A stretch of DNA of 64,000 nucleotides from an uncultured virus (IMG/VR IMGVR_UViG_3300044858_003318) (IMGVR_UViG_3300044858_003318), one strand, 5' to 3'. Shown: positions 9,894 to 63,930, counted from the first letter of the stretch. The notes: generated by a model not told the origin, from the letters alone. A program made the numbers and translations.

Positions 9894-9895
9894 AG

Positions 9896-11073: not shown

Positions 11074-11077
11074 ATTA

Positions 11078-11085: not shown

Positions 11086-11088
11086 TAA

Positions 11089-12823: not shown

Positions 12824-12824
12824 G

Positions 12825-37759: not shown

Positions 37760-37761
37760 AG

Positions 37762-43231: not shown

Positions 43232-43237
43232 ATAACG

Positions 43238-43858
43238 TTATTTATTTTTAATATTTTCTATAATATGAAGTCCAGTGCATTTTTCAAAGTAATTATTCGA
43301 TATAAATTCATTTGAAAAATATTTTGGATTAATCCACCAATCTTCGAAGTAATTAGTATCATCCCATAATCCTAAACTACCATTTGGTGCTTTAACATCG
43401 TCGCATAATCGAATATATCCTTTTGATGATAAAATATCATATGATTTTGTTTTAGACTCATTGCCGCCAGCATAAAAATCATGTTCAAATGTCATTATTT
43501 TAAATTCATACGAATCAAATGGAAAATTTTCTAATCCAACGATTGATGTTGGATCGATATCTAATGATATGTAATCAATTACGGTTGGCACTTCATAAAA
43601 ATTAAAAATATCTCGTAATTCCGTTTGAGGTATAAGAACAGTTAATACATCCGAATTTATACTTACATTACGACGATTTGTTGCTGATGCTGGGTCTCCG
43701 TCAATACATACGCCTTTCCAACCAGCTTCTTCTAGAAGCAATGTATTACTATTGATTCCAGTGTGATCAAATCCGGCGCCAATATCTACAAAAAACCCGG
43801 CGTTCCCAATAAGTTTTAGTGCAAATTGATCTTGGTATACTTGTGAATATGTTTTCAT
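43238..43858 (-). CDS. FkbM-like SAM methyltransferase
   Basis: YSQ..QD, FFVDIGA, SNT.LLE..GWKG, IDYISLD, EHD, EDWW. Confidence 0.8.
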   Translation of the reverse strand: MKTYSQVYQDQFALKLIGNAGFFVDIGAGFDHTGINSNTLLLEEAGWKGVCIDGDPASATNRRNVSINSDVLTVLIPQTELRDIFNFYEVPTVIDYISLDIDPTSIVGLENFPFDSYEFKIMTFEHDFYAGGNESKTKSYDILSSKGYIRLCDDVKAPNGSLGLWDDTNYFEDWWINPKYFSNEFISNNYFEKCTGLHIIENIKNK

Positions 43859-44775: not shown

Positions 44776-46007
44776 TATTTTCCAATTATCTCAAACTTAG
44801 GACATGGAACGATAAATTTACCACCATTTGACAAATATTCATCTTCTCTTTGTACAAATTCAGATATAAAATGCCACGGAAGTACTAACATATAATCTGG
44901 CTTCATTGCTCTAACTTCTTCTTCCGATAAAATAGGAATATTAGTTCCAATTGTTTTTAATCCAAATTTATATGGGGAACGTTCTGCAATTGCATCTATC
45001 ATTGTATGATCCAATCCAAACCATTGTAATAATGTATTTCCTTTTGTCGATGCGCCATATCCGCAAATTACTTTACCTTTAGCTTTTTCTTGTTTAATAA
45101 AGTTTACGGTTTGTTCTTTAAGTTCTTCAATATCCGACTGAAACTTTTTCCATATATTTAAATCATTCATATTATAGAATGTAGTTTCATATTCTAGTAA
45201 CGAATCTACTCTAAATTTACATACATCTCTTAATGGACTAGTACCAAATGATGTAACGTCAGCTGTTTCTTTTTGTACATAAACTCGGAAACTACCTCCA
45301 TTAACATCATTTAAACTGCAGTCGACTATTTTTAATCCGTGACTCTCAAATAATTTTTTAAATGAACCAATTGAATGATAATATGCGTGTTCGTGACAAA
45401 TATTATCAAATGCCAATTGTTTAATCATTAATGGAGTATATGACAATTGTAATACCCATATTCCATTATCATCTAATATTTTACAAACATCATTAATAAA
45501 AGGATGCGGATCTAATAGATCGTAAAACATAGCAATCGTCGTTATAACTTTGACTTTTTTATCGCCATACCCCGTACGTTGATATGCGTCGTAACTAAAA
45601 TAATCTTGTACAATCGTAGCTACTTTAGATGATTCGTTAACAAAAGTATCATCTGCAGGATCGATACCTATTTTACTATAAGTATCAGGTACTTGCTTTA
45701 ATAAAGTTCCATCATTACATGCAATATCTAACCATATGTCACCTGATTGATGTTTTACTCGAGATGTTATTTCATCTACAATGTTTCCTAATTCTTTAGT
45801 CATAGTAGCATTAATTCCGGAACGATACCAATACTTACCCCACATCGTTTCATTTGGTGGCATTCCCGTTAATCTAGCAGCGCCAATTTCAGTGTTTAAT
45901 ACTAAATCTAAACTATATTTTTCTCGGCCGGTATAGTCGGATTCTGATTTAATAAAATCCGAAACATAATGTTCGCCTAAATTTACAACTTTGATGTTAT
46001 TTTCCAT
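44775..46007 (-). CDS. NDP-sugar C-methyltransferase
   Basis: DIACNDGTLL, FDNICHEH, NGGSFR, GYGASTKGNTLL, LPWHF. Confidence 0.88.
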   Translation of the reverse strand: MENNIKVVNLGEHYVSDFIKSESDYTGREKYSLDLVLNTEIGAARLTGMPPNETMWGKYWYRSGINATMTKELGNIVDEITSRVKHQSGDIWLDIACNDGTLLKQVPDTYSKIGIDPADDTFVNESSKVATIVQDYFSYDAYQRTGYGDKKVKVITTIAMFYDLLDPHPFINDVCKILDDNGIWVLQLSYTPLMIKQLAFDNICHEHAYYHSIGSFKKLFESHGLKIVDCSLNDVNGGSFRVYVQKETADVTSFGTSPLRDVCKFRVDSLLEYETTFYNMNDLNIWKKFQSDIEELKEQTVNFIKQEKAKGKVICGYGASTKGNTLLQWFGLDHTMIDAIAERSPYKFGLKTIGTNIPILSEEEVRAMKPDYMLVLPWHFISEFVQREDEYLSNGGKFIVPCPKFEIIGK

Positions 46008-46011
46008 ATAT

Positions 46012-46989
46012 TTACTTTATATTATTTTTTAATAAATTAATATCATTAGTTACCATTATATTAACCATTTGTTCCAAACTGGTTTTAGGTTCCCATCCTA
46101 ATTTTTCTTTTGCTTTTGATGCATCGCCTAATAAACACATCGGATCTACTGGACGTAATAATTTACTGTCAAATTTAACAAATTTACTCCAATTATCAAT
46201 TCCAATACACGCAAATGAATAATCTAAAAATTCTTTAATTGAATATGTTTTACCAGTTGCTAAAACAAAATCTTCCGGAGTATCTTGTTGAAGCATCATC
46301 CACATTCCTTCTACGTAATCAGGCGCATATCCCCAATCTCTTTTAGATTCGATATTTCCTAATGTTATATGATCTGCTAATCCTAAATGTATACGAGCAA
46401 CTCCATCAGTAATTTTTCGTGTTACAAATTCTACACCCCTACGTTCTGATTCATGATTGAATAAAATTCCATTTACTGCAAACATACCATAACTTTCTCG
46501 ATAGTTTTTAGTAATCCAATACGCATATAATTTTGCTACACCGTATGGCGAACATGGATGAAAATCTGTTAATTCATTAGCAGTTCCACCTTTTTTACCA
46601 AACATTTCAGATGACGATGCTTGATAAAATTTAGTGTTTTTATTTCCATATTCGCGAATAGCTTCTAAAACGCGTAATGCACCTAAACCGGTTATATCTG
46701 AAGTTTGTTCCGGTGTTCCCCAACTTTCTCCAGCAAAGGATTGTGCTCCTAAATTATAAACTTCATGCGGTTCGCTATCTTTAACTGCGCGAACTAATGA
46801 ATTTTGATCCGATAAATCTCCTTTCAACATATGAATTTGATCGGATACTTTGAATAAATTCGGAGTATATGGTGTACTTTTTCTTCGTTCTAATCCAAAT
46901 ACTTCATAATCTTTTGATAATAAAAATTCGGCTAAATGAGATCCATCCATCCCGCCGATACCTGTAATTAATGCTCGTTTCTTTTTCAT
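46012..46989 (-). CDS. gmd: GDP-mannose 4,6-dehydratase
   Basis: ALITGI.G.DGS.LAE, YQASSSEMFG, SPYGVAK, NHESERRG..FVTRKI, RDWG. Confidence 0.95.
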   Translation of the reverse strand: MKKKRALITGIGGMDGSHLAEFLLSKDYEVFGLERRKSTPYTPNLFKVSDQIHMLKGDLSDQNSLVRAVKDSEPHEVYNLGAQSFAGESWGTPEQTSDITGLGALRVLEAIREYGNKNTKFYQASSSEMFGKKGGTANELTDFHPCSPYGVAKLYAYWITKNYRESYGMFAVNGILFNHESERRGVEFVTRKITDGVARIHLGLADHITLGNIESKRDWGYAPDYVEGMWMMLQQDTPEDFVLATGKTYSIKEFLDYSFACIGIDNWSKFVKFDSKLLRPVDPMCLLGDASKAKEKLGWEPKTSLEQMVNIMVTNDINLLKNNIK

Positions 46990-48374
46990 TATTTATTCTT
47001 AAAATTAAAATTAAAAAATTTATCTACAATTGTTTTAATATATGCAATTTGTTCTTCTGTAATAACTGGACTACAACCTAAAAAGAATGTATCGGTTGTA
47101 ACTTTTCTGGCTATTGGAAAATCATTGATTACTTGTTCAGGATCCATTAATCCTTGATATGCTGGCTGTAACATAATATTACCAGCAAAATATGGCCGTG
47201 TTTGTATTTTGTGTGATTCTAAAAATTGACAAAATTCGGCTCTCGTAAATCCAGCACCATCTTTTACCGTTAATGCTACAGCAAACCAATCTGGATCTGC
47301 GTGTTCTGTTGCTTTTGGTAAATAAAAGAATTGTTCATATGATTTAAAAATATCAACAATTAATGCGTGATTTTTTCTTCGAATTTGACCTATTTCTTCT
47401 AATTTTTGCATTTGCACAAATGCCATAGCAGCTTGCATTTCTATTGGTTTTAAATTATAACCAATTTCTTCGTAAACATATTTATGGTCAAATACGTCAT
47501 TTGGCAGAGCTGGTAACCAATTATTAAATCGTTGATTACACATTCCGCATTCTAACTGATTTTGTTTTCCTACACAATAACAGCCTCGACCCCAATCTCT
47601 AAAACTTCTTAAAATTCGCTCCGTTTCTAAATCATTACATGCAACAAAACCGCCTTCACCCATAGTAATATGATGTGCTGGATAAAATGAACAACTGGCC
47701 ATTTTGCCATATGTTCCTAATGGCTGATCTTTGTATTTTGAACCTAATGCATCGCAGCAATCTTCTAATAAAATTAAATTGTATTTTTCAACCAATTCCA
47801 TTAAACGATCCATATTAGGAGGATTTCCTAAAACATGTGCAAATGTTATAACTTTAATATCCGGATCTTCTTTTAATTTTTGTTCTACTTGATCTAAATT
47901 TAAATTTAAAGATTCTAATTCAATATCCACAAATACCGGAGTAAATCCTAACTGCAAAATAGGATTAATTGTTGTAGGAAATCCAGCAATTGGAGTTAAT
48001 ACTTTAGTTCCTTTTGGCAAATTCATACCTCGTTTTGAGGTTAATGCTGCTAACATTAATAAATTTGCACTAGATCCACTGTTCGTTAAAATTCCTAATT
48101 TTTTACCTAACCGTTTAGGAAATCTGGATTCGAAACGTATACCTTCTTGTCCTAAAACTAACCATCCTCCTAGTAATGTTTTAACTGCTGCTATATATTC
48201 TTTTTCATCAAAATAATTTCCAGCATATTGAACTAAATCTTTACCAGCTTCCCATGTTTTAGATGATTCTTTATGTTTGATGAACTTTTCTACTAGATTT
48301 AAAATATCTTCTACTTTTAAATCTTTAGAATCTATGAATTCTCGTTCTAAATCAGTGTACGTTTTATTAATCAT
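46989..48374 (-). CDS. rfbH: NDP-4-keto-6-deoxyhexose 3-dehydratase (E1/DdhC)
   Basis: NSGSSANL, SFYPAHHITMGEGG (His replaces the Schiff-base Lys), RDWGR.CYC...C Fe-S motif, DHKY. Confidence 0.93.
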   Translation of the reverse strand: MINKTYTDLEREFIDSKDLKVEDILNLVEKFIKHKESSKTWEAGKDLVQYAGNYFDEKEYIAAVKTLLGGWLVLGQEGIRFESRFPKRLGKKLGILTNSGSSANLLMLAALTSKRGMNLPKGTKVLTPIAGFPTTINPILQLGFTPVFVDIELESLNLNLDQVEQKLKEDPDIKVITFAHVLGNPPNMDRLMELVEKYNLILLEDCCDALGSKYKDQPLGTYGKMASCSFYPAHHITMGEGGFVACNDLETERILRSFRDWGRGCYCVGKQNQLECGMCNQRFNNWLPALPNDVFDHKYVYEEIGYNLKPIEMQAAMAFVQMQKLEEIGQIRRKNHALIVDIFKSYEQFFYLPKATEHADPDWFAVALTVKDGAGFTRAEFCQFLESHKIQTRPYFAGNIMLQPAYQGLMDPEQVINDFPIARKVTTDTFFLGCSPVITEEQIAYIKTIVDKFFNFNFKNK

Positions 48375-49018
48375 AATGTATTGTAAAAATTATTTTGTTT
48401 TTCTTGTCGGTCAATTGTTTTTGGGTGATATAAAGCAAAATATTCTACATCTGGTAGAATAGTATATGTTTTGAACCCATCCAACCGCTCATGTACTTTA
48501 TTTATCCATTTAATTTCAGGTACATTTCTCCAAATACGCCATTGAAAATCAGGCCAATTAACCCAACCTTTTTCGTTTACTTTCCAGCCCCATTGTTGAA
48601 TATGTTCAGGTGTTAAACCCTCAACTGTGTTTACTCGTGGTACTAAGAAAATATCCATTTCAGGATTTAATTCTAAAAGCTCATGTAAATGTTTAATTAA
48701 ATCCTCTGATGGGTATTCATCAGCATCAATTTGGAAGATATAATCTCCGGTACATTGTTGGGTTAAATGATTTTTAAATGCTGAGAAATCGCTATTTAAT
48801 GGGTTAAATATAACTCGGCAATGCCCTTGTTCATTATGTTTCATGATATACTGCCAAACTAATTTTTTAGCTTCTGACATACTATTAAGATCAGCTACAG
48901 ACAAATCCATTTGAATAACGATTTCGTCATGAGGTTGTTTATGTTCTAACAAAAACGCTAACAATCGTTGAATTTCTATAAATTCATCACAAACGGTTAC
49001 AGCATAACTTATTTTCAT
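48371..49018 (-). CDS. glycosyltransferase family 2
   Basis: IDADE, WPDFQ.R, KVHE. Confidence 0.85.
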   Translation of the reverse strand: MKISYAVTVCDEFIEIQRLLAFLLEHKQPHDEIVIQMDLSVADLNSMSEAKKLVWQYIMKHNEQGHCRVIFNPLNSDFSAFKNHLTQQCTGDYIFQIDADEYPSEDLIKHLHELLELNPEMDIFLVPRVNTVEGLTPEHIQQWGWKVNEKGWVNWPDFQWRIWRNVPEIKWINKVHERLDGFKTYTILPDVEYFALYHPKTIDRQEKQNNFYNTL

Positions 49019-49041
49019 AATATATAATACGTTATTTTAAA

Positions 49042-50307
49042 TTATTCTCCAACCTTTTGTAACTTAGGCAATTCTATCTTTTTTAGCTGCGGTAACTTAA
49101 GTTCTACTGGCTTTGGTATCTTTGCTACCATTTCTTCTATGTGCTGTAATACGTTCTTATAGATATCTGATACAGCAGTTTTAGTAAATGTGCTATTAAC
49201 AAAGTATCTTTGTCGTTTTGCTAAATCACACCATTTCTTGTAGTTTTTACGAACATCCTGCAACATCTTGCCGGCGTATGTATAATCAGGAGTAAACCAT
49301 TTTGCATCTCCAATTAAAAATGGATTTTGTGCAGATGCATGAATTGGTGTTAATCCGCCTGGCAATTCACATATAAAATCTTTTTTCAAGAAATCAGCTT
49401 GTCCAGAATAATGCGGTGCTATAATAGGTTTACCGGTTGTAGAAAATTCTAATAATGGTCGACCAAATCCTTCAGATTTAGTAAATGTTACCATTGCTTT
49501 TACTTTGCTATGATTATACAATGCATTCATTTCAGCATCTGTCAACTCACCATGCAATACATATACATTTGGAAGTTTTGCGTTACCGAACATATCTCGT
49601 ATCTGTAATACTTTGGATTCAATATCCATTCGATCCATTATACTATAAGTAGCCCCACTCGTTTTTAATATTAAGGCCGGCATATCTTTTGTATTTTTGA
49701 ATGTATTGAAAAAACAATGCACAAGTCCAGAAATATTTTTTCGATCCTCACCGATTTGTCCTTGCAACCAATGACCAACTGATAAATACGCCCAAGACTC
49801 TTTAATGTCATCCAATGCAGGTACTGATGCTACAACATCTTTATTATTATAAACCGTCTCAACAAAATATTCTGGAATTACCTCTATTTTAACAGTTAAT
49901 GGTTTGTTATGCTTTTTAGAAGTTTCAATAAACACTGTTTTAGTAAATTCACTCGGAACAATAATTAATTGCATGGCATTTAATTTATCAATCCAATCCT
50001 CCGGGCAAATATCTCCTTCGGTTCCTGCAGTTACTCCGATATTGTATTTACCTACTGGTTGTAATTCATTAGGAACAGAAATTTGAATCCATATGTCAGG
50101 TTGCTGTGTTAGTGGCAACGGAATGATTCTTCGTTGCAAATCAGGTACCAATGGATATGACATTGGAGTCGCTCCCCATGGCAATGATACTAATTTTACA
50201 TCCCATTCATCTGATTTTTGTTCTATAATATTCGTGATAATTTCACGTGCATGATGTCCATAACCACTTTGTGTTGCTACTGGTGATGCTATAACTACGT
50301 TTCTCAT
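49042..50307 (-). CDS. glycosyltransferase family 4
   Basis: SGYG, DRKN, EGFGRPLLE. Confidence 0.88.
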   Translation of the reverse strand: MRNVVIASPVATQSGYGHHAREIITNIIEQKSDEWDVKLVSLPWGATPMSYPLVPDLQRRIIPLPLTQQPDIWIQISVPNELQPVGKYNIGVTAGTEGDICPEDWIDKLNAMQLIIVPSEFTKTVFIETSKKHNKPLTVKIEVIPEYFVETVYNNKDVVASVPALDDIKESWAYLSVGHWLQGQIGEDRKNISGLVHCFFNTFKNTKDMPALILKTSGATYSIMDRMDIESKVLQIRDMFGNAKLPNVYVLHGELTDAEMNALYNHSKVKAMVTFTKSEGFGRPLLEFSTTGKPIIAPHYSGQADFLKKDFICELPGGLTPIHASAQNPFLIGDAKWFTPDYTYAGKMLQDVRKNYKKWCDLAKRQRYFVNSTFTKTAVSDIYKNVLQHIEEMVAKIPKPVELKLPQLKKIELPKLQKVGE

Positions 50308-51797
50308 TATGCTACTATTCCTGTTTGTTTATATTCTGTTGGCTGTACTTGGTGTAATGTGTATGAAGGTCTTGGTTGTTTATATGCGGTAAACAAATAA
50401 CGATACATATCAATCATTTTATTACCCATTTGCTCTGCCGTTAATCCGTTTTCTAAAGCCCATTGTCTTCCTGCTAATCCTCTCGTGTCTCTTTCTAATT
50501 TAGACATTTGATACCAATACATGATTGCGTCTGAAACATCTTCAAATTGAGCTCTATCATCAAAAATATATGGTGTTGCTGGTGATCCTTGCAATGAACG
50601 GTTGGTTGGAAATACTGGTTTTACCCAAGATCCATGTTTTTTATATTTACCGGTGTGATTTGTAGAAAACTCTCCGTTAAAACAAATCCATTCGCCATTT
50701 TCATCTACGAACCCACATTGATCTTGCAATCCGCCAGTTACGTTGTTAATAATCGGGATTCCAGCTAATATTGCTTCGGTTGAACTTAGACCCCAACCTT
50801 CATTAGAACCAATATTTACCACTACATCTGCAACATTATACATTGCGTTTAGATCCGTTCCAGATAATTTTTGTTCTGAAAAAATAATTTTACATTGCGG
50901 GGCAAGTACTTTTGCTACTGCACGTAAATCGGTTCCATTTTCGTCGATTGGTTGCGTATGCATTAGTAATGCAACTTTAGATCGTTTATCTTCTGGTAGT
51001 TGATCTGTAAAGTGTTTGAATGCTAATATTACATCACCTGGCTGTTTTCTTCGGATGTTTCGGTTATTCCAAAATACTACAAAGTCTACATCATTTTGTT
51101 TTTTAATTCTTTCAAACATTGTTGCGTATGCTGGATTTGTAGCTTCTAATGGTTTGAACGTGTTATGATTTAATCCGTGAGGCACGAAACCGGTGATTGC
51201 ATCATTCCATTTAATATCTGCAGGTACTGAATCTCCGTTGTCGTAATCTACAACACCAAATCCGTTCTGTTTAAGCACTTCTTTATGGATATTATCAGAC
51301 TGTTTGCTAATTCCCATAATCATATCACAACTACCGTAATATGGGGCATTCCACATTGGATATGGTAAATCATCCCAAATTGAATAATAGGTAATAGGAA
51401 TACCAAAGGTTGTTTTGATTTCATGTTCGATCGCATACAACCAAGTCCAATAACGAGGATCGGTGAAATGAAGAATAGCATCAGGCTTTTCTTGATTTAG
51501 TACCGCAAATAAAATATTTCGGTCGCCATATCCATTATATGGTATCAATTTAACTGATGCATCTTCTACCCCAGTTTCTTGGGCAATTTCTGCAGACAAA
51601 TCAAATGCCTTGCCAGCATCCGGATGATTGATTGCAGCTCCAATTTGAACCCAATCAAATTCTTTAACTGTGCTGAAAATAATTTCTTTGCTAATTGTTC
51701 CAATACCGGATGGTAAACGAAAATCATCTGCTAACAATAAAATTTTCTTTTTTGCTGGCTTGTTTGGATCAATTTTTTTTAACTTTGGTAACTCCAT
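50307..51797 (-). CDS. glycosyltransferase family 4
   Basis: NRNIRRK, EGWGLSSTEA. Confidence 0.88.
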   Translation of the reverse strand: MELPKLKKIDPNKPAKKKILLLADDFRLPSGIGTISKEIIFSTVKEFDWVQIGAAINHPDAGKAFDLSAEIAQETGVEDASVKLIPYNGYGDRNILFAVLNQEKPDAILHFTDPRYWTWLYAIEHEIKTTFGIPITYYSIWDDLPYPMWNAPYYGSCDMIMGISKQSDNIHKEVLKQNGFGVVDYDNGDSVPADIKWNDAITGFVPHGLNHNTFKPLEATNPAYATMFERIKKQNDVDFVVFWNNRNIRRKQPGDVILAFKHFTDQLPEDKRSKVALLMHTQPIDENGTDLRAVAKVLAPQCKIIFSEQKLSGTDLNAMYNVADVVVNIGSNEGWGLSSTEAILAGIPIINNVTGGLQDQCGFVDENGEWICFNGEFSTNHTGKYKKHGSWVKPVFPTNRSLQGSPATPYIFDDRAQFEDVSDAIMYWYQMSKLERDTRGLAGRQWALENGLTAEQMGNKMIDMYRYLFTAYKQPRPSYTLHQVQPTEYKQTGIVA

Positions 51798-51830
51798 TTA
51801 TTATTCCTTATAACTTTATTATAAATATTA

Positions 51831-53578: not shown

Positions 53579-54016
53579 TTAAAAAATAAATGTACCAACC
53601 TCTTGTTCATTCTCGTCTTTAATTGAGATACCTGGTTTTTGTTGCCCTGGAGCGTTAACACCCGTTGAAACAGTTTCACCATAAACCCAATTATATTTAC
53701 CACCTTTAGTTCCTCTCCCACCAAAATTTTTTGTGGTGAAGTTTGGTTGCCACTGAGTTTCATAATCTGTTATTTGAACTCCATCAACATCTGTTGGGAA
53801 CCCGTAATCGTCAAAAGTAATTTGACCTTGTTTTTTATTAGTAAAATAATTTTTATCAAAATTAATGGTCTCTTGCTCCATTAAATAATGATTTGCAATT
53901 TTATTGAGTCGTATAGCATCTTGTTGTGCATTATATGCTTTATCTTCATCTTCGTTTAAATTCTTAGTTTTAAAACGACGCATATTTTCTGCTAGAATAT
54001 TTTTTAGTTTTATCAT
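53579..54016 (-). CDS. cassette protein with MIKLKNILAENMRRFKTKNLNE leader
   Basis: leader shared with 60985-61371. Confidence 0.8.
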   Translation of the reverse strand: MIKLKNILAENMRRFKTKNLNEDEDKAYNAQQDAIRLNKIANHYLMEQETINFDKNYFTNKKQGQITFDDYGFPTDVDGVQITDYETQWQPNFTTKNFGGRGTKGGKYNWVYGETVSTGVNAPGQQKPGISIKDENEQEVGTFIF

Positions 54017-54967: not shown

Positions 54968-55185
54968 TATTTTTTCAGTTTAATGGGTTGAAACACTTCT
55001 GGAATAGACCCGCAATCATCACATCGAAACACAGGAACCGGAACCATTGTATCTTTATCCCCACCTGTTAGAAATTTTGATACTTTGTTAATTGCCATTA
55101 CTTGACGAAAATACATTCCATCACATTCTTTGCATTGAATTGGCTGCATATCGTTTGGGCCAATATTAACATTTAATTTACTCAT
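54967..55185 (-). CDS. zinc-ribbon protein
   Basis: CKEC...CDDC; start at MSKLNV. Confidence 0.7.
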   Translation of the reverse strand: MSKLNVNIGPNDMQPIQCKECDGMYFRQVMAINKVSKFLTGGDKDTMVPVPVFRCDDCGSIPEVFQPIKLKK

Positions 55186-56108
55186 ATTTCTCCTAATATA
55201 TTTACAAACATGGACATTATGTTGATTTCTTTGTCTACAACAGATGCATCTTTGTATTGAGCTTCTGCAATAATTAAAATGCATGGAGCTACATGTCCAT
55301 GAGCGAATTCATCTAAATTGTCATATAGAAATGTGTATAGTGCCGTAAAATCTCTTACTTTGCTATCTGCAATAATTTGACGTATTTTAGTGAATGCACC
55401 TTTCTTGTCTGCAGAATTGCGTAATACATCTAATATTTCTGTCATGTAATTTGCTTGTATAGCACTTGCTTTATCTAGTTGCAATGTGTTATTAACAACT
55501 GATGCTTGTGCTGCATTAATTGCACGACGAATATCTGGATATGATGCATTAATTATTGCAGCAACATCTTTAATATCAAACTCAATTTGCTTTTCTTCTA
55601 ATACTTGCACAAGCCGCTTTGCTACATCTGTTTTATTCGGAGGAGTAATTGCAAATGTTTGACAACGAGATTGTATTGGATCAATAATCTTTTCTACATA
55701 ATTACATGTAAGAATAAAACGGGTTGTTTTACTATATGTTTCCATTAAATTACGTAATGCTGCTTGAGCATTTGGTGTCAAATAATCAGCCTCATCCAAT
55801 ATAATGATTTTCCATCGTCGAAATCCTACTGTCGATGCATAACGTTTAATCTTATCCCGTACAGCATCTACTGAGTTTTCATCGGATGCATTTATATACA
55901 TAACATCGGCATCCACACTACCGGCAATGATTTTTGCCAACGTGGTCTTCCCAGTACCCGCGGTACCATAGAATAATAAGTGAGGAACATCACCATTATT
56001 AATAAAGATGCGTACTTTTTCAATGATATGTTCATTACCTATATATCCTTCTAATGTGTCGGGACGAAATGATTCGACCCAAAGTGTATTTTCTTGTGTA
56101 TTAAACAT
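55182..56108 (-). CDS. clamp loader, RFC small-subunit/gp44-like AAA+
   Basis: WVE.FRP, GTAGTGKT, INASDE, DEAD, SRC motif. Confidence 0.95.
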   Translation of the reverse strand: MFNTQENTLWVESFRPDTLEGYIGNEHIIEKVRIFINNGDVPHLLFYGTAGTGKTTLAKIIAGSVDADVMYINASDENSVDAVRDKIKRYASTVGFRRWKIIILDEADYLTPNAQAALRNLMETYSKTTRFILTCNYVEKIIDPIQSRCQTFAITPPNKTDVAKRLVQVLEEKQIEFDIKDVAAIINASYPDIRRAINAAQASVVNNTLQLDKASAIQANYMTEILDVLRNSADKKGAFTKIRQIIADSKVRDFTALYTFLYDNLDEFAHGHVAPCILIIAEAQYKDASVVDKEINIMSMFVNILGEI

Positions 56109-56115
56109 AATATAA

Positions 56116-56544
56116 TTATTTTCCTCCGGTAGAACCGAATCCTTTTTCTCCTCGTTTAGTTCCAGTTAATCCAGCTACCGGTAACCATTGTATCTGTTCT
56201 ACTTTGCATAAAACCATTTGTGCTATTCGGTCGCCTGGATTGAATATAATAGAGTGCGGACCATGATTAATCAAAATAACTTTTATTTCTCCCCGATAAT
56301 CTGAATCAATCGTGCCCGGTGAATTTAACACAGTAATTCCATGTTTTAGTGCCAATCCACTTCTTGGTCTTATTTGCAATTCATAACCTTGCGGAACTTC
56401 TACAAATAATCCAGTTTCAACTAAACATCTGCCGCCTGAGTCAATTGCGACTTCATTAATACATCGGATATCTAAACCAGCACTACCCGGAGTTTCGTAT
56501 GCAGGTAGTGCATTATTTGACTGATTTACTACAGATACTATCAT
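56116..56544 (-). CDS. dut: trimeric dUTPase
   Basis: SAGLD, RPRSGLA, GTIDSDYRGE, RIAQ, RG.KGFGSTG. Confidence 0.97.
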   Translation of the reverse strand: MIVSVVNQSNNALPAYETPGSAGLDIRCINEVAIDSGGRCLVETGLFVEVPQGYELQIRPRSGLALKHGITVLNSPGTIDSDYRGEIKVILINHGPHSIIFNPGDRIAQMVLCKVEQIQWLPVAGLTGTKRGEKGFGSTGGK

Positions 56545-56546
56545 AA

Positions 56547-57257
56547 TTAATTTTGCAATTGTACTAACCAATAAGATGATTCAAAATCAGTTCCGGTAAA
56601 ATCAATTCTTGCTAATCCTTCTGGTGAAATATGAAGTTTACCAGAATCACCTTTATTTGCGATAAGAATTTCTTTTAATTTATCTGCTGAAAAACAGATA
56701 GGTTCCATATTAGTAATATTAGTAGGACCAACTTCAAATGAAATGTTATCTGCATTAATAGTGGTATAGTTAATAATAAATTTTATACTACCATTTACAA
56801 CTTGTACTGCAAAATTCTTAGCATCTGGCAATGCATTTTTTGCTTTAATAAATTTACTAATAAATTCATCATCAACATCGATTGAAACCTGATAATCTGG
56901 TTCTGCATTAATTGTTGGTACTGCTGGAATTACAGTGGTATCTGCTAACATGAAGGTTAACTTTGTGGTACCTTCTGAAATTTTCATTGCATAGTTTTTA
57001 CCTGCAGATTCTTGCACGTCAATATTAATTTTTTCTCCTACGGCACTAAGCATTTTTGTCAATGCACCGGTATGATTAATACCTAACGATCCATTCATAA
57101 ATGGTGTAGTTTTCCATTGAATTTTACCTACTACGGTTTGATCTTGATCGATTAGATTACAACCTACACCGGTAGAATTTTCATTAAGAATAACCGCTTC
57201 ACAATTTCCTGCTAAATAGTAGCGATTAATAAATGATTGTAATTTACTTTTTTCCAT
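56547..57257 (-). CDS. putative DNA sliding clamp
   Basis: 236-aa alpha/beta protein next to the clamp loader; called on size and context. Confidence 0.65.
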   Translation of the reverse strand: MEKSKLQSFINRYYLAGNCEAVILNENSTGVGCNLIDQDQTVVGKIQWKTTPFMNGSLGINHTGALTKMLSAVGEKINIDVQESAGKNYAMKISEGTTKLTFMLADTTVIPAVPTINAEPDYQVSIDVDDEFISKFIKAKNALPDAKNFAVQVVNGSIKFIINYTTINADNISFEVGPTNITNMEPICFSADKLKEILIANKGDSGKLHISPEGLARIDFTGTDFESSYWLVQLQN

Positions 57258-57266: not shown

Positions 57267-58517
57267 TTAAAATTTAAAGAATTCTGCGAACTTATTTGCA
57301 TCGGTAGTTGATATAGAATCCCCTCCGAATTTTTTATATGTTTTTTTGTATTTTGCATATACATGCATTGCATTTTCTGGATCTGCAAACATATCATGTA
57401 ATGATAATATCACATTAAACAAATCCGTTGGAATAGCTGTTTCTAACAATTCAACATGACTATCAACCATTTTGTCAATATCCTTTGCAATATTCACATA
57501 CAAATGTGTATTATGCACAACCATTCTTGGCATACCTTCTTGTGAATATCGATCCAATCCATCTGTAGTCAGCCCGCCTAAATATTCATACGTAAAATCT
57601 TTACATGCTGGACAATCCATACTACACGGTACATGTTTTGTCTTATCGATATCTACCGAATCTTTACCTTGCTTAATATGTGTCTTTCTACGATATTCAG
57701 CATTCTTAGGGAAATACAATTCTGTAAATGTCTGTGTCTTATAATTACCTGAGTGAAGATATGTTCCATATACTGGATACTGACCCGGTGACGATGAATC
57801 TGTCGATAATTGCACACGACCATTAGTTAAGTCATTAAGTAACTTTTGTAATGTGGATAGAATAAAGAAATCTGATATTTTTGAAATACCTAACAAGTGA
57901 ATATATTGAACATGAGGCTTTTCAAATTCTCTTTCTTGCAACATTAATGCAATAACATACATAAAATCAACTAATCGCTTTGGACCTCCAATACACCATC
58001 CGTTAAAGTCAAAGTCTTTAAATTTATGATACCATGTGTTATATTCTTCGTTATATGTACCCTGAATTACATTTAAGAATTTTGTCTTGCCTGATTGATG
58101 TTTTTCAAACCATTTAAAGTTATCAAAAGAAATATCCATCGAATCTTGAAAACGATTTTCAAATGTAACTCGAGGTGGAATATCTAAGTTAGCTGCTACA
58201 TCGCTGTTAGCTTCTAACCAATGAAATATTTTTTCTCGAAGTGTGCTATCCCATTTCAATGCACCAGTAGCAATCTGGAATCCTCCTGAATCTCCAAATA
58301 CTAATACATCATCATCTAGACCAATCTGTTGACGAAAATCCATTTTCTTGTAATGGTGACCTGCTGTAATCAAAAAATATGGATGCCTCCATTCTTCTGG
58401 ATAATCTTTCCCGAAAAATCGCATAGTGGTACCATCTTCAAACTTAGCATCCTTTTTGAATGCTGATACCATTGATCCTGCTGATAATGAAGGATAGTAA
58501 ATAAACTTTTTACTCAT
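57267..58517 (-). CDS. dpdA: TGT-fold transglycosylase, probable DNA 7-deazaguanine insertase
   Basis: DSGGFQ, LDIP, VIQG, IGG, HLLG, DSS, C...C..C plus HN Zn site. Confidence 0.8.
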   Translation of the reverse strand: MSKKFIYYPSLSAGSMVSAFKKDAKFEDGTTMRFFGKDYPEEWRHPYFLITAGHHYKKMDFRQQIGLDDDVLVFGDSGGFQIATGALKWDSTLREKIFHWLEANSDVAANLDIPPRVTFENRFQDSMDISFDNFKWFEKHQSGKTKFLNVIQGTYNEEYNTWYHKFKDFDFNGWCIGGPKRLVDFMYVIALMLQEREFEKPHVQYIHLLGISKISDFFILSTLQKLLNDLTNGRVQLSTDSSSPGQYPVYGTYLHSGNYKTQTFTELYFPKNAEYRRKTHIKQGKDSVDIDKTKHVPCSMDCPACKDFTYEYLGGLTTDGLDRYSQEGMPRMVVHNTHLYVNIAKDIDKMVDSHVELLETAIPTDLFNVILSLHDMFADPENAMHVYAKYKKTYKKFGGDSISTTDANKFAEFFKF

Positions 58518-59677
58518 TATTTTCCTTGTATTAAATGTTTACAATATGCTGTTTCATGCCATATATTATGTTCTTGAGTTATATCATTAACCATAATATA
58601 AGCTTCTAACTGCCGACCTAAGTCAGAAATATCAACTATATTGTAATGTGTTCTTTGTGTTTCAATTGTATGCTGTAATAATCGTAATGCACTCGTAACA
58701 TCAAATGCTTTGTATAAACGATCATAATCTATAAATTCAGGGAAAGATCTGAAATTAGGATATACAATATCAGCACCAAATGCCGTTGCTTCAATAACTG
58801 TCCAAGACACGTAATCTTGTAATGCTGAATTGAACTGAATTTTACATGTAGCTAATTCAGTGTAATATTCTTCTTTTGACAATCCACTTAACAATTTAAA
58901 ACGAGGTTGACGTTTAGCTAATGCTTTCATTGCATCAATTACATCAGGAAGCATCGATCTAAATTCTTTACCAGATGTAGTTACATGCCATTCCCATATA
59001 GTATGTTGTTCTAAAAACTGTTCTGCAACATCTAACATGAAAAACGGATTCTTTTCTTTGTCTAAACGAGATGAATATACTACTACATTTTTCTTTCGTT
59101 CAGATATATTTGGTAATTTTGCTAATGTAGCTTGTTTATGAATTGGTAATGAAACTACATGAATTGGTGCAGTGAATCCAGCTGCTCGAAGTTGTTCTCT
59201 ATGAATAGTGCTACCGACAAAGATGCCAGACATTCGTTTATCTAATCCTAATTCATAATTACGCATCCACTTTGCCATTGGATATGTAAAATCATATTCA
59301 TCAACAGATTGTGCATGAAGCATTGCATACACTTTAACTTCAATGCCATATAAATCCAATGCATACCAAATTGCATCTAAACCAGGAGTCCAATAATCTT
59401 GCAAAAAGATAATATCTCCAGATTTAACTTCATCATTATAAATTCGTTGAAGAAAATTTTGACATTGTGTCAAACTAAATTTACCTCTACCAATAGCATC
59501 TAATACTGCACCAACTTTAATTTGCTGATCAGGATCAAATTCGCCTTCAATATCTATAAAGTTTAATTTTCCAGCTTTTACATATGGTTCGAATGTGGCT
59601 GGCATCCATTCTTTTGAAAGCTGATATGTGTATCGAGCTTTAAGTGGTTCTAAACCGAAATAAAATAAATTCCTCAT
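58517..59677 (-). CDS. GT-B glycosyltransferase
   Basis: SSRLDKEKNP, EATAFG, YP..RSFPE; TAATG-coupled to the dpdA-like gene. Confidence 0.8.
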   Translation of the reverse strand: MRNLFYFGLEPLKARYTYQLSKEWMPATFEPYVKAGKLNFIDIEGEFDPDQQIKVGAVLDAIGRGKFSLTQCQNFLQRIYNDEVKSGDIIFLQDYWTPGLDAIWYALDLYGIEVKVYAMLHAQSVDEYDFTYPMAKWMRNYELGLDKRMSGIFVGSTIHREQLRAAGFTAPIHVVSLPIHKQATLAKLPNISERKKNVVVYSSRLDKEKNPFFMLDVAEQFLEQHTIWEWHVTTSGKEFRSMLPDVIDAMKALAKRQPRFKLLSGLSKEEYYTELATCKIQFNSALQDYVSWTVIEATAFGADIVYPNFRSFPEFIDYDRLYKAFDVTSALRLLQHTIETQRTHYNIVDISDLGRQLEAYIMVNDITQEHNIWHETAYCKHLIQGK

Positions 59678-59715
59678 TATAACTTATAATAATAAATTTT
59701 TTAAAACTATCCAAG

Positions 59716-60069
59716 TTAATCACGCTCAATTATAGCGCCGTTTTCCCAATCTTCCCAAACTTCTACTTTGTATAGTTCTGGAAATTGATCTAATAACCAT
59801 TCGCCAATTGCTTCACATGACATTGGTCCGAATTCTAACACATTGGCAAAGCCTTTTTCGAAGCTCAATTGTAATGTTCTTTTTATTTCACGATTCAATA
59901 AAATAAATTCTTTGTCGCGATCTGTATGTGTTACTGTTGCATAACAACGAAACCCGAACATATGACGATGTCTATCTGATAAAAATGCTACTGGTGGAAA
60001 TATGTCTTTTGCTGCAGGCCAACAATGAAACCCTTCCATACTAAATGTTACTACTACGCTGTACTTCAT
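59716..60069 (-). CDS. dpdL: T-fold QueD paralogue (DpdL-like)
   Basis: LSDRHRHMF = LxxxHRHxF, SCE.I, VEV.ED.ENGA. Confidence 0.7.
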   Translation of the reverse strand: MKYSVVVTFSMEGFHCWPAAKDIFPPVAFLSDRHRHMFGFRCYATVTHTDRDKEFILLNREIKRTLQLSFEKGFANVLEFGPMSCEAIGEWLLDQFPELYKVEVWEDWENGAIIERD

Positions 60070-60457
60070 CTGCTATTTGTTTTTTAAATTTAGTGGTTGA
60101 CCATCCATGGTCTCTGTTTATGTAATGAATATCGATACCTAATTCCTTACCAGTAAAATCTTTTCCAATATAATCATCGCCTAAAAACCGTACATCTGGA
60201 TCGATTCCTTTAAGGAATTCATATAGTATTTCTTCGGTAGAATATGCTATAACTTCATCAATCATTTCTAATGAATACAACATTTCTTTTCGGTCATCTA
60301 AAGATAATATTGGTTTCATTTTCTCTGGGCGTTCTAAACTAGGATCTTCATGTAATAATACTATTAACCAAGTACAATGTTTTTTACATTCTTTAAACAT
60401 TTTAATGTAACCTGGATGCATTACATCAAAATTACCTGCTATAACTCCTAATTTCAT
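60041..60457 (-). CDS. cytidylyltransferase (TagD-like)
   Basis: GNFDVMHPGY, GDDY, R.HGWSTT. Confidence 0.85.
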   Translation of the reverse strand: MKLGVIAGNFDVMHPGYIKMFKECKKHCTWLIVLLHEDPSLERPEKMKPILSLDDRKEMLYSLEMIDEVIAYSTEEILYEFLKGIDPDVRFLGDDYIGKDFTGKELGIDIHYINRDHGWSTTKFKKQIADEVQRSSNI

Positions 60458-60891
60458 AGTTCTTCATCAAATTTATAGTTATCAGGCTGAATTTCCATCA
60501 TATTGCACTTAGTAATCTGGTGCACACGATACCAACCAGCATCAATACTCAATGTATCGGTGTCTTTTAGCAGTTGTACTGCATCATCTTGTATACGATA
60601 AATAATGTGGCATCGATTAACAAGATCCACAGGAATGTTCTTTAAAGTGTCTTTAGCAGCTTCAATGGTTATAGCACAATTAGTTGTATCTAAAATATGC
60701 CGGATAATTGAAAGATATTGTGCATTATCTTCAATTTGTCGCATATATTCTATAGTAAAATAATAATGTGGATATTCTGTATATGATTTTACTTCTAGTT
60801 TATTGTTAACTAACTCTCTAACAAAGAATGTCATAATATCCGAATACCGACCTTCTACTTCGCGGCCGCGCCATTGCTTTTTTCCGTACAT
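60454..60891 (-). CDS. hypothetical protein, first gene of the modification operon
   Basis: W.GREVEGR....T.FV; class-I promoter at 60903-60932. Confidence 0.7.
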   Translation of the reverse strand: MYGKKQWRGREVEGRYSDIMTFFVRELVNNKLEVKSYTEYPHYYFTIEYMRQIEDNAQYLSIIRHILDTTNCAITIEAAKDTLKNIPVDLVNRCHIIYRIQDDAVQLLKDTDTLSIDAGWYRVHQITKCNMMEIQPDNYKFDEEL

Positions 60892-60984: not shown

Positions 60985-61371
60985 TTAACTTAACGGAGTA
61001 GAATCGTCTTCATTTTCTGGATCTACATACAATCCTAATTGTCGACCTAATGCTTTCATAATTTCAATTCCAGTTGCATCATCTATAGTAGAATCTATCG
61101 ATTTCATATATTTAAGAATTTCATCTGGATCTGTATCTTTTATAATCATGCTTTGTATGTTTAATACCATACGAGCTTGTTCTCGCTCTTTTGCACTTTT
61201 TCCAGAAAATACTTTTGCATATGTTGCAACTGCAGCTGCCAAAAGTCCTCCAGCTCCTATTGCCATTTTAGAAGCTGGAAATAAAATCCCAGGATGTTCT
61301 TCATTTAAATTTTTAGTTTTAAACCGACGCATATTTTCTGCTAGCAAATCTGTTAGTTTAATATTTGACAT
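60985..61371 (-). CDS. cassette protein with IKLTDLLAENMRRFKTKNLNE leader and hydrophobic segment
   Basis: leader shared with 53579-54016. Confidence 0.8.
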   Translation of the reverse strand: MSNIKLTDLLAENMRRFKTKNLNEEHPGILFPASKMAIGAGGLLAAAVATYAKVFSGKSAKEREQARMVLNIQSMIIKDTDPDEILKYMKSIDSTIDDATGIEIMKALGRQLGLYVDPENEDDSTPLS

Positions 61372-61419: not shown

Positions 61420-63930
61420 TCATTTACCAAAGCTAAAAAACTTTGCCGCATTATTATTTTCTGGCAATACGCCCCACGTCATTGCTGCATAGAAATCATC
61501 TAGTTTGCCTTTTAATTCGCGTTCAAACTGCTTGTTACGATCAATGTACATTGCAACAAAATCTACAATCTCCGTAGGATCCTGGTAACCTTTAAGTGCC
61601 ATGGTATCAAATCCATATGGATTATTTCGAAGATATGCCCATTTCACTTTATCACCATCTTTGATAGAAACTACATCAGTTGTTAATGTTGTTAACATGT
61701 CATTGTAATTAATTGCTGATTTAACATGAGCTGGCGAACCAGATAAATATCCACTAAAAGGTTTACGTTTCTTAGTATATTTAGATATTTCTTTAACACC
61801 TGAATTCTTCATTACACTTGTTAATTCTGCATTATTCAATGAATCTTTGAATTTTAAAATCATTTCAGATGTAGCTTGTTTGCTGTTTTGTTTCAAAATA
61901 TACCATAATGTTTCTTTCATTATAGTTTTAAACTCATCTGGGAATGATGATCTAACTACATCTAATCCTTTAATATCCATTTTGTTAGTAGGTTTACCTT
62001 CTTTAAAGATAACCCACTGTGCATATCTTTTCTTAGCAATCCATAAACCAGATTTTGCAACATATTCTTGTTTAATTGTGAACCGATGCGAATCTGTATT
62101 TAAAAATACTTTTGCATACTGGTTGTACATTGTGTTTACTTTAAGTTGTACTTCAGATGCAATTTCATTGGTTTTTTCAATCATGAATTGTTCGTCTGTT
62201 TCATCGAATCCAGGATAACGATGCTGTATGAGCGGTAAACTAGAAACAAATGTTGAATCTGTGTCAGTATAAAATGCAAACTCAGCTTGTTGACCGGATG
62301 CATTAATAAAGTTTGAATGTCCAATTTCTTTTTGGTAATGATTATTAATAACTTTTGCTGAAAATTTAATAATACTTTGTCCAGTTGCTGTAATAGCACC
62401 AGCATTATCTAAATCGTGGAATCGAAACGTTTTAAGTCCTAATACTCCATAAAATGAATTAAGCAATACTTTTTGTGTTAACTGCATTGCATCATAAAAC
62501 TTATAATCATCACTACCTACTTCATATTCATCACGCTTATCTTTAAATTCTACCCGCTCATCAAACCATTTTGCTAGAATTGTTGGTAAAAATCCTTTTA
62601 TATCGGTTCGATACACCGTTCCATTGCTAGCAACTGTATATTTATTATCGGTTAACCATTGTTTAACATCTGTAATCGTTTTGTTTCCAATTTGTACCGA
62701 TACCGGATCAGTTTTTAATAAACATGTTTCATCCCAATTAGCAATAACTCCGATCTTTGTTTCTGGAGATATGTTTAAACTCATAATGATACTCGGATAC
62801 AGAGATGTTAAATCCAAGTCATATATCCATTTATACAATCCAGGCACCGGTGCCATTACATATGCACCTGCCAACACATCAGCTGCAGTTTCTTCTTCAA
62901 TAAAACGGAATTGTTTATTTGGAGCTACATATCCATTACGTTTTAAATCTACTATAGCAGCACCATCTAGATATTTAGATGCATAATAAACATCTTCATA
63001 TGGTACATGTCCTTTATGACATATAGTCCGTGCTAAGTTTATGAACTGTAACTTTTCATCTAATTCATAAACCAAATCGGTATCTGTCATGTTGTAAAAA
63101 GCAAACTTGTGAATATCTTGTGTAAAAAGAACATCTAAATCACCTTCATATTCAACTTTACCTCGACCCAATTCTAGTTTTGCAACAGTATCTAATCGAT
63201 AATTTGGTAATTCGCTGTATGTAAAGTTTTTATATAGTTTCAAATAATCTAAACTAGAAACACCAAATATTTTCCATTTTTCCTTTTTTGGATTATAATC
63301 TACAATTCCAGCCGGACTTAATTTTTTGATGGCATTTACACCTAATACCTTTTTAGCACGACCCAATAAATATGGAATATCATATCCATCAGTGTTCCAT
63401 CCTGTAATTACAGTTGGTTGTACAGCCGCAAATATGTTTATAAATCTGGTTAAAAGATCTCTTTCGTCTCGAAATATTTCTAAAACATAACCATCGCCTT
63501 GTATTTCACGTTCTTTTATGCGATTCAGTTCGTCTAATATAAGTACTCGTCTATCATTACCAATTTTATCATAATATGCAATTGATGTTATAGCCGTGCG
63601 CGTATCATGTATAGTACTATATCCATTTTCATCTTTTGCTGTTTCAATATCAAAGAAAAAATCGCGATGTCCTTTTGATACTAAATCTGATTCATAGTAT
63701 AAATCTATCAGGGTTCGGACTTCTTCATTTAGATCAGATTCGTATGAAGCAGGATTATCTTTATGATTTCCTGGTATCTGTTTTAATGTAGTGCCGTCTA
63801 ATGATACATATGTTCCTGCAGAGTCTGGTAAATATGCATATGGTTTAAATGGAAATTTTTGATGTCCTAATTCATCATCCCACACGTGCATAGTACCGGA
63901 TTTTCTGTCATATGAAATATTTTGATACAT
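61420..63930 (-). CDS. family B DNA polymerase with 3'-5' exonuclease
   Basis: FDIET, GWN..GYD, DLTSLYPS, K..LNS.YG, YTDTDS, KKRYA. Confidence 0.97.
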   Translation of the reverse strand: MYQNISYDRKSGTMHVWDDELGHQKFPFKPYAYLPDSAGTYVSLDGTTLKQIPGNHKDNPASYESDLNEEVRTLIDLYYESDLVSKGHRDFFFDIETAKDENGYSTIHDTRTAITSIAYYDKIGNDRRVLILDELNRIKEREIQGDGYVLEIFRDERDLLTRFINIFAAVQPTVITGWNTDGYDIPYLLGRAKKVLGVNAIKKLSPAGIVDYNPKKEKWKIFGVSSLDYLKLYKNFTYSELPNYRLDTVAKLELGRGKVEYEGDLDVLFTQDIHKFAFYNMTDTDLVYELDEKLQFINLARTICHKGHVPYEDVYYASKYLDGAAIVDLKRNGYVAPNKQFRFIEEETAADVLAGAYVMAPVPGLYKWIYDLDLTSLYPSIIMSLNISPETKIGVIANWDETCLLKTDPVSVQIGNKTITDVKQWLTDNKYTVASNGTVYRTDIKGFLPTILAKWFDERVEFKDKRDEYEVGSDDYKFYDAMQLTQKVLLNSFYGVLGLKTFRFHDLDNAGAITATGQSIIKFSAKVINNHYQKEIGHSNFINASGQQAEFAFYTDTDSTFVSSLPLIQHRYPGFDETDEQFMIEKTNEIASEVQLKVNTMYNQYAKVFLNTDSHRFTIKQEYVAKSGLWIAKKRYAQWVIFKEGKPTNKMDIKGLDVVRSSFPDEFKTIMKETLWYILKQNSKQATSEMILKFKDSLNNAELTSVMKNSGVKEISKYTKKRKPFSGYLSGSPAHVKSAINYNDMLTTLTTDVVSIKDGDKVKWAYLRNNPYGFDTMALKGYQDPTEIVDFVAMYIDRNKQFERELKGKLDDFYAAMTWGVLPENNNAAKFFSFGK

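Follow-up and report, generated by a model that had tools for sequence, protein, structure and literature searches.

A predicted 7-deazaguanine DNA-modification module with a conserved glycosyltransferase in an uncultured T4-like virus

The 7-deazaguanine modifications known from DNA carry at C7 a cyano, amido, aminomethyl, methyl- or formyl-aminomethyl or carboxy group, or nothing at all. No genome is known to us to contain a glycosylated purine analogue, and a full-text search of the literature returned no description of a glycosylated deazaguanine in DNA. In the Cellulophaga phage phiST, all of the guanine (G) in the DNA is replaced by 2′-deoxy-7-deazaguanosine (dDG), and the phage encodes FolE, QueD, QueE, DpdL and DpdA3 (Cui et al. 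2023, PMC10516641). Here we describe a locus at positions 57267 to 60891 of a 64,000-nucleotide stretch of DNA from an uncultured virus (IMG/VR IMGVR_UViG_3300044858_003318), the whole of which we refer to as the window, where genes for a DpdL-type protein and a long DpdA-like enzyme are joined by a glycosyltransferase (GT) gene. From its gene content, this region is very probably a module for the modification of DNA with 7-deazaguanine, and the GT is probably a functional part of it; that the outcome is a glycosylated deazaguanine in DNA has an even chance or slightly less. The new point is the GT as a member of the module, the FolE, QueD, QueE and DpdL gene set being already known from phiST.

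The five open reading frames (ORFs) of the locus were verified at the following coordinates, all on the minus strand between genes for a family B DNA polymerase (PolB) and a putative sliding clamp:

57267..58517, minus strand: long DpdA-like transglycosylase with the fold of tRNA-guanine transglycosylase (TGT), 416 amino acids (aa), by Pfam TGT, motifs and BLASTP
58517..59677, minus strand: GT-B/GT4-type glycosyltransferase (the GT), 386 aa, by predicted fold and invariant residues
59716..60069, minus strand: DpdL-type T-fold protein (QueD paralogue), 117 aa, by LSDRHRHMF and homology to phiST
60041..60457, minus strand: TagD/RfaE-II-like nucleotidyltransferase, 138 aa, by CTP_transf_like
60454..60891, minus strand: conserved 145-aa protein, kept alongside the module in the T4-like clade

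A preliminary description of the window had called attention to these genes and proposed that they produce a novel DNA hypermodification. Its observation is confirmed, while its interpretation is supported only in part. The reported overlap of the GT stop with the TGT start is borne out by the junction ...AAA TAATG AGT, where one base is common to both codons.

With phiST the virus shares the same precursor genes, the lack of QueC, a DpdL bearing LxxxHRHxF and adjoining replication genes. phiST differs in its short DpdA3 of 259 aa, its MazG-like gene and CGPG_00066, and a search of it for the GT gave no match, whereas the 416-aa DpdA-like protein, the GT, the 145-aa protein and the nucleotidyltransferase are the window's own. 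The precursor genes folE, queD and queE had been reported as absent, and this holds for the window, but not for the genome: they are missing from the window because it ends too soon. The search of the remaining genome that the preliminary description had recommended found all three in IMG/VR record G001, which represents the same genome, at 104179-106713 (0.8-3.3 kb past window position 64000), with only thioredoxin, GroES and one small ORF between them and PolB. FolE is well supported by Pfam (1.9e-44) and by the NCBIfam FolE model (2.9e-43). The QueD/PTPS protein (104885-105349, Pfam 4e-13) is canonical and separate from the DpdL-type protein, and two small ORFs lie between it and a radical-SAM protein whose top five NCBIfam matches are all QueE models (best 9.5e-15), all of them under the curated cut-offs. 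The reported absence of queC extends to the whole of G001, where a six-frame search that was positive in 14 of 14 control genomes gave no match. QueC was likewise not found by Pfam scans of 190 G001 ORFs (98 + 82 + 10 scanned as window ORFs) or of 15 further ORFs, eight of them in or beside a 5.4-kb stretch missing from G001, two from the window and five spanning chunk borders; no QueF was seen in G001. Because QueC is absent, preQ0 is not made by the phage, and the presence of FolE, QueD and QueE without QueC therefore constitutes a DpdL-type gene set, as in phiST.

The identity of the T-fold protein as a DpdL is well founded. The motif LxxxHRHxF is the signature of DpdL, in place of the CxxxHGH of QueD (Cui et al. 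2023, PMC10516641), and LSDRHRHMF of the window protein fits it. The protein is 41.5% identical over 117 aa to CGPG_00067, the DpdL of phiST, and belongs to phrog_17812 (E 2.7e-24); residues H34-R35-H36, F38, C85, E86 and E106 are invariant in an alignment of 21 sequences. Together with the separate canonical QueD in the genome, these results uphold the proposed DpdL-like assignment. Among the literature matches listed, Cui et al. 2023 alone mentions DpdL in connection with phages.

Assignment of the TGT-fold enzyme to the DpdA group, also proposed at the outset, is supported by its relation to proteins of the phages PA5oct and ACP17 that are listed as DpdA. BLASTP matched QCG76197.1 of PA5oct at 1e-18 and YP_009609723.1 (gp123) of ACP17 at 9e-7; sheet DS1 of Cui et al. 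2023 (PMC10516641) lists the former as DpdA3 and the latter as DpdA2. Pfam TGT (PF01702) matches residues 103-180 only (E 3.3e-7, 30.1 bits vs a cut-off of 26.3), and the score against TIGR00449 (29.2 bits) lies under the cut-off of 47.6. D76 (GDSGGFQ), D112 (LD.P) and D240, which we take to be the TGT catalytic residues, are invariant among 19 aligned sequences, and these three motifs argue for an active base-exchange enzyme. In the same alignment, the cysteine cluster CSMDCPAC, a possible zinc-binding motif, is confined to the close clade of the window protein, and is missing in relatives at ~50% identity and in distant ones. The relation to the short DpdA3 proteins of phiST and of phage immuto_2-6A is remote, and the window protein therefore represents a distinct long DpdA-like form of about 395-540 aa.

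The GT appears to be catalytically competent, judging by a confident AlphaFold model (predicted local distance difference test, pLDDT, 92; predicted template modelling score, pTM, 0.90) with the two Rossmann domains of a GT-B fold, and by R204, K209 and E296, presumably the donor-binding residues of GT4 enzymes, which are invariant in an alignment of 32 sequences. Among its relatives at 72-76% identity, most of the matches listed carry a precomputed PF00534 match. Foldseek placed MshA (E 5e-13) and BshA first, with tetrahydrobiopterin (BH4) glucosyltransferase 9v0l at rank 49, and comparison by VIA gave Z scores of 26.2 for sucrose-phosphate synthase, 25.8 for BshA, 24.1 for PimA and 22.1 for a BH4 glucosyltransferase (5zer). 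The α-glucosyltransferase of phage T4, in its DNA-bound structure, aligned over 320 residues at Z 19.4 (rank 35). Like the T4 α- and β-glucosyltransferases, which act on 5-hydroxymethylcytosine in DNA, the window GT is a phage GT-B enzyme for which a non-canonical base is the proposed acceptor. A second point of comparison is HuiG of huimycin biosynthesis, for which transfer of N-acetylglucosamine onto the 2-amino group of a free 7-deazapurine has been proposed from gene-cluster deletions and the product structure (PMC7439116). According to a 2026 preprint, glycosyltransferases of the HuiG family have the GT4-type domain PF13439. In both systems a glycosyltransferase is encoded with FolE, QueD and QueE homologues, a likeness of gene content; the HuiG system as described belongs to actinomycete secondary metabolism, uses an acceptor derived from preQ0 and has no transglycosylase.

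The case for the GT as a module component is carried by its linkage to the DpdA-like and DpdL genes across viruses. A scan of viral contigs with the GT alignment yielded 553 confirmed relatives, and the best 80 loci, that is, those picked by GT similarity, were kept. A TGT-like gene was present in 70 of these 80 (54/61 of those with at least 1.5 kb of downstream flank), DpdL in 57 (47/63 with at least 1.5 kb of upstream flank, the scope that also applies to the next two genes), the 145-aa protein in 53 (45/63) and the nucleotidyltransferase in 14 (13/63). In a sub-clade seemingly without DpdL, two of three contigs tested have DpdL elsewhere, and the third is a fragment estimated to be 32% complete. 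Where both ORFs were complete (51 loci), the GT gene lay immediately upstream of the TGT-like gene, overlapping it or within 30 nucleotides (nt), in 33 cases and 31-250 nt upstream of it in 12; in the remaining six, all from distant clades, the order was reversed, with the TGT-like gene upstream of the GT and a gap exceeding 250 nt. The coupling of the GT to DpdA and DpdL genes that had been suggested from the window thus recurs elsewhere, and the comparison of neighbourhoods advised earlier found the GT strongly conserved beside the dpdA-like gene.

The same association is seen in named phages. Like the window, PA5oct (EST35_0316-0318) and ACP17 (gp123-125) encode a long DpdA-like protein, a GT and a DpdL, adjoining QueE and DNA polymerase, although the order is TGT-GT-DpdL there and DpdL-GT-TGT in the window, and identities are 22-33%. 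In PA5oct the three genes are followed by an epimerase fragment, a phosphoribosyltransferase and QueE, the first two being additions relative to the window; in ACP17 the order is QueD, FolE, one other gene, TGT-GT-DpdL-QueE. The Synechococcus phage BUCT-ZZ01 has QueE, a gene annotated as xanthine-guanine phosphoribosyltransferase, QueD, FolE, a second GT (GT2), TGT-like, DpdL and GT, and in Phosso, BCSR5, X1 and BUDD the GT and DpdL are adjacent or close by. The GT of PA5oct and ACP17 is annotated as hypothetical. Sheet DS1 of Cui et al. 2023 (PMC10516641) includes the DpdA and DpdL genes of both phages, while "glycosyl" does not occur in the main text of that paper and the ACP17 GT (YP_009609724) does not occur in the part of the supplement searched. 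No dDG was obtained when ACP17 DpdL and DpdA were expressed in E. coli, and the authors raised the possibility that further enzymes are needed; the relevant supplement passage does not list the GT with the ACP17 genes that were cloned (PMC10516641). PA5oct DNA, as described, is resistant to enzymes whose recognition sites contain G, and a modified G was inferred there.

Overall, 18 of 23 phage records with a GT match also have DpdL, and 11 of 29 records with DpdL lack the GT. Among the latter, a short DpdA3 stands beside DpdL in phiST and in three of four further loci inspected, so two architectures exist: in one, DpdL is paired with a short DpdA3, and in the other with a long DpdA and a GT. 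Sugar-nucleotide enzymes adjoin the GT in distant relatives: in locus L101 an NAD epimerase/dehydratase gene overlapping the GT stop precedes a DegT fragment, in locus L087 an epimerase/dehydratase and a phosphoribosyltransferase lie in the GT neighbourhood, and in PA5oct there is the epimerase fragment. A prokaryote genome collection contained 13 loci with GT relatives, on contigs binned into metagenome-assembled genomes; PolB was present in 7 and DpdL in 11, and in none of the 13 was there any indication that the GT belongs to a cellular context. The GT family is very abundant in aquatic viromes, with at least 7,309 protein clusters at E <= 1e-5 among 8,000 candidates scored.

Judged by the major capsid protein (57.5% identity), the isolate closest to the virus is immuto_2-6A, which also has a deazaguanine pathway and whose DNA has all G replaced by a deazaguanine (PMC10516641). 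It differs in having a short DpdA3, QueC, QueF, a formyltransferase, a phosphoribosyltransferase and a family A polymerase, and it gave no match to DpdL or to the module GT; an unrelated gene annotated as a glycosyltransferase lies ~14 kb from its DpdA.

We propose that the five genes constitute the insertion and tailoring half of a pathway that would replace guanine in virion DNA by a 7-deazaguanine derivative. FolE, QueD and QueE, encoded past the window edge, supply the route to 7-carboxy-7-deazaguanine (CDG). By analogy with the published proposal for phiST, the DpdL-type protein would turn CDG into 7-deazaguanine and the long DpdA-like enzyme would exchange guanine in DNA for this base. 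The GT4 enzyme, whose gene is presumably translationally coupled to the DpdA-like gene, would move a sugar from a nucleoside-diphosphate donor onto the deazaguanine, as its conserved linkage suggests. Glycosylation might occur on the free base before insertion, given that the nearest precedents (HuiG, acting at N2, and BH4 glucosyltransferase) use small acceptors, or, in the manner of the T4 glucosyltransferases, on the base once it is part of the DNA. The small nucleotidyltransferase may be an optional helper that raises the supply of activated donor, and the 145-aa protein may be a further, clade-specific component. The expected benefit would be that restriction and other defences aimed at DNA are kept from acting on the phage DNA. 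As a whole, a DpdA/DpdL pathway extended by glycosylation is the best explanation that we can offer, and we hold its prospects to be evenly balanced; the specific claim that the GT4 enzyme, the long DpdA and DpdL jointly make a sugar-bearing 7-deazaguanine in phage DNA is tentative, the balance tilting somewhat against it.

Several considerations weigh against a glycosylated base. Unsubstituted 7-deazaguanine has no hydroxyl at C7, and thus no obvious O-acceptor, and chemical evidence that any deazaguanine in DNA bears a sugar is not known to us. In phiST, as far as its description goes, plain dDG is made with DpdL and without a GT, and DpdL therefore needs no GT. The decarboxylation of CDG by DpdL is itself a proposal, for which heterologous tests failed (Cui et al. 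2023, PMC10516641). The match of the GT to Pfam Glycos_transf_1 (E 9.7e-5, 22.4 bits) falls under the cut-off of 26.4, and the nearest structural neighbours of its predicted model are generic retaining enzymes of the GT4 type; T4 α-glucosyltransferase is not one of these nearest neighbours, acts on another acceptor base and has no detected sequence similarity to the GT. Comparison of the DpdA-like protein by hhalign with the short DpdA3 of phiST (E 2.2e-4, probability 45%) and of immuto_2-6A (E 0.017, probability 2.6%) gave weak results, and a profile of the TGT-like family found only chance antibody matches among PDB sequences (E > 0.6). Furthermore, the counts of GT loci overstate the number of independent events because the 80 loci come mostly from one T4-like lineage, so that the independence of the linkage rests on a handful of distant clades.

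The main rival explanation is that the virus makes plain dDG, as phiST does, with the GT either assisting the long DpdA in a non-glycosylating role or glycosylating some other target, such as protein, another base or host polysaccharide. This we consider unlikely, while taking it more seriously than the minor alternatives. The identical precursor set with DpdL yields dDG in phiST, the missing O-acceptor fits it, the genome carries a large sugar cluster and no fewer than four further GT genes, and the long DpdA, being unlike the short DpdA3, might just need a partner. Against it, the GT stays adjacent to the DpdA-like gene despite changes of order across distant phages, its invariant donor-binding residues argue against a dead scaffold, sugar-nucleotide enzymes adjoin it in other clades, and the ACP17 DpdA and DpdL, expressed from a set of listed cloned genes that does not include the GT, gave no dDG. 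A complex prediction for the TGT-like protein with the GT returned no answer (score 0.00) and is evidence neither way.

The minor alternatives place the product elsewhere or have it made by another route. A GT4-type enzyme glycosylates queuosine in animal tRNA, and the best Pfam and NCBIfam matches of the TGT-fold enzyme are tRNA-guanine transglycosylase models, so that the two proteins might instead modify host tRNA, as with queuosine and its glycosylated forms in eukaryotes. This is improbable, as the genes lie within a DNA replication block (PolB, clamp, dUTPase and clamp loader), the sole phage tRNA is Glu-UUC and none has a GUN anticodon, relatives of the TGT-fold protein are listed as DpdA in phages, and PA5oct DNA shows G-specific restriction resistance. 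More improbable still is a pre-replicative route, with the deazaguanine made into a nucleotide and inserted by the polymerase and the TGT-like and GT proteins as accessories: the phosphoribosyltransferase genes in modules of PA5oct, BUCT-ZZ01, L087 and immuto_2-6A, the MazG-like dNTPase beside phiST DpdL and the replacement of all G in phiST and immuto_2-6A (PMC10516641) are in keeping with it, but the scanned ORFs (190 of G001 and 15 further ones) gave no Pribosyltran match, and the invariant Asp motifs argue that the TGT-like protein would be an active base-exchange enzyme. We give the least credence to a small-molecule product, a pterin or deazapurine glycoside made by FolE, the PTPS-type enzyme, the T-fold protein and the GT and at no point inserted into nucleic acid. 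The GT model does match tetrahydrobiopterin glucosyltransferases (5zer and 9v0l, as above), and the proposed HuiG product is a free deazapurine N-glycoside (PMC7439116); however, the BH4 glucosyltransferase match is no better than that of many other GT4 enzymes, the TGT-fold base-exchange enzyme is the most constant neighbour of the GT, and QueE commits the pathway to CDG.

The two accessory genes of the locus differ from the core in their distribution. The cytidylyltransferase had been counted as part of the module; its presence in only 14 of the 80 loci, together with relatives in 126 phage records (the majority from phages of Streptomyces, Synechococcus and Vibrio), speaks against this, and we regard it as an optional accessory. 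It matches CTP_transf_like (E 4.2e-13, 50.1 bits vs a cut-off of 21) and phrog_7878 (E 2e-34), and its best NCBIfam scores lie below the equivalog cut-offs (TIGR01518, TagD, 58.7 vs 165.4 bits; TIGR02199, RfaE domain II, 65.7 vs 181.5 bits). In the window protein and its 14 close relatives (15/15), HPGY replaces HxGH, whereas three copies from distant clades have HAGH. The further suggestion of a cytidine diphosphate (CDP)-activated or polyol donor finds no specific support, and neither does a role in CDP-glycerol synthesis or use, in view of this motif and of scores far under those of TagD and RfaE-II equivalogs. The gene nevertheless recurs at differing positions within the distant modules L086, L103 and L106 (the last two from genome contigs), which makes a loose functional tie, for example in donor supply, plausible.

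The 145-aa protein has no match in Pfam, PHROGs, NCBIfam or PADLOC, has 22 invariant columns in 20 sequences and gave a model with pLDDT 89. ESM Atlas gave no usable match and Foldseek nothing at E <= 0.001; VIA returned QueE (Z 5.9, 5.6 and 5.2) and STAS (Z 5.6), weak values at the level of common arrangements. Profile comparison by hhalign lent no support to kinship with DpdL (probability 0.1%) or with phage QueE (0.7%), although in the latter run the stretch EGR..T.FVR of the protein was aligned to EGS..PTI.VR of QueE. The notion of a QueE-like half-barrel lacking the cluster is no more than a lead. When longer, fused forms were sought, a single protein of 509 aa came up, on a contig of 2.3 kb, with only 68% of the query matched and no Pfam match. 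More broadly, the 3.6-kb region had no blastn match in 50,697 phage records, none of the PHROGs families corresponds to the TGT-like protein, the GT or the 145-aa protein, and PADLOC matched none of the five module proteins.

Small phosphoribosyltransferase genes occur inside the deazaguanine modules of L010 (PA5oct), L013 (BUCT-ZZ01), L087 and L095 (immuto_2-6A), a hint of a nucleotide-level branch of the pathway. Pribosyltran gave no match at E <= 1e-4 in the 190 G001 ORFs, nor at E <= 1e-3 in the 15 further ones. Elsewhere in the window, a nucleotide-sugar cluster of ~17 kb lies at about 34000-51800 (G001 119.7-137.5 kb). It includes a 496-aa GT4 (a GT4-conflict match), a GT1 and two GT2s, a DegT aminotransferase, a 4,6-dehydratase, a sugar C-methyltransferase, a thiamine pyrophosphate-dependent enzyme, epimerases, and an acetaldehyde dehydrogenase with an HMGL aldolase; the predicted functions suggest synthesis of a branched or deoxy sugar. 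The idea that this cluster must feed the module GT was rejected on the example of immuto_2-6A: in that phage a gene annotated as a glycosyltransferase follows a PD-(D/E)XK nuclease, matching the start position of the window cluster, and yet its DNA is reported to consist of dA, dC, dT and fdPreQ1 only (Cui et al. 2023, PMC10516641).

The genes that surround the module are the following:

61420..63930, minus strand: family B DNA polymerase, upstream neighbour, DNA_pol_B, E 5.2e-40
60985-61371: additional 128-aa ORF between PolB and the 145-aa gene
56547..57257, minus strand: putative sliding clamp, downstream neighbour, without a Pfam match and assigned by position, the preliminary description's call and conserved synteny
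56116-56571: dUTPase, after the clamp, E 2.3e-32
55182-56108: AAA/RFC-like clamp loader, after the dUTPase, by Pfam

The picture of five packed genes running from the DNA polymerase to the clamp thus stands for the five ORFs, and needs amending for the sixth, of 128 aa, that is also present. This protein and another, otherwise unlike small protein (window 53579-54016) have in common the N-terminal motif LAENMRRFKTKNLNE, to which conservation of the 128-aa protein in its relatives is confined; the motif may be a targeting or packaging signal.

Record G001 is 159,977 bp long and estimated to be 95% complete. It aligns with the window, in reverse orientation, in two stretches at 99.996% and 100% identity, and near-identical DNA is held by lake-water metagenomes. 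By Pfam scans its gene content is that of a T4-like myovirus (gp23, gp20, gp25, sheath, S21, GroES/GroEL). It encodes ribosomal protein S21, GroES, GroEL, ClpS and a sigma-70-type factor (L005:7068-7310, L007:7035-7334, L009:15715-17334, L009:8992-9303 and L002:10012-10752), as well as a thymidylate-synthase homologue of 417 aa, longer than usual (window 11633-12886; G001 159,609-160,862 region; L009:18609-19862), comparable to the 423-aa ThyA of immuto_2-6A. The 5,443 window bases at 6075-11517 are missing from the otherwise near-identical G001 and form a strain-variable island of 5.4 kb. It contains tRNA-Glu(UUC) (7328-7400, minus strand), a 734-aa protein (7689-9893, minus strand) with SprB repeat, PKD and CHU_C type IX secretion C-terminal domains, and a 4HBT thioesterase (11089-11490, minus strand); GC content is 0.42 at the 734-aa protein and ~0.33 elsewhere. 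To judge from its gene content, the island looks to be derived from a Bacteroidota host, to which the type IX secretion C-terminal domain also points.

If the glycosylation proposal is correct, a sugar on 7-deazaguanine would be a new class of DNA hypermodification, and the responsible enzyme would represent a new activity usable in DNA labelling. Such a modification would offer one explanation both for the altered G of PA5oct DNA and for the failed reconstitution with the ACP17 proteins. Even if the sugar fails to materialize, the distinction between a long DpdA accompanied by a GT and a short DpdA3 without one would sharpen the classification of the DpdA subfamilies. In the conflict between phages and their hosts, a glycosylated deazaguanine would constitute a new target or shield, with restriction enzymes, CRISPR, END-type nucleases and DNA glycosylases as the defences concerned.

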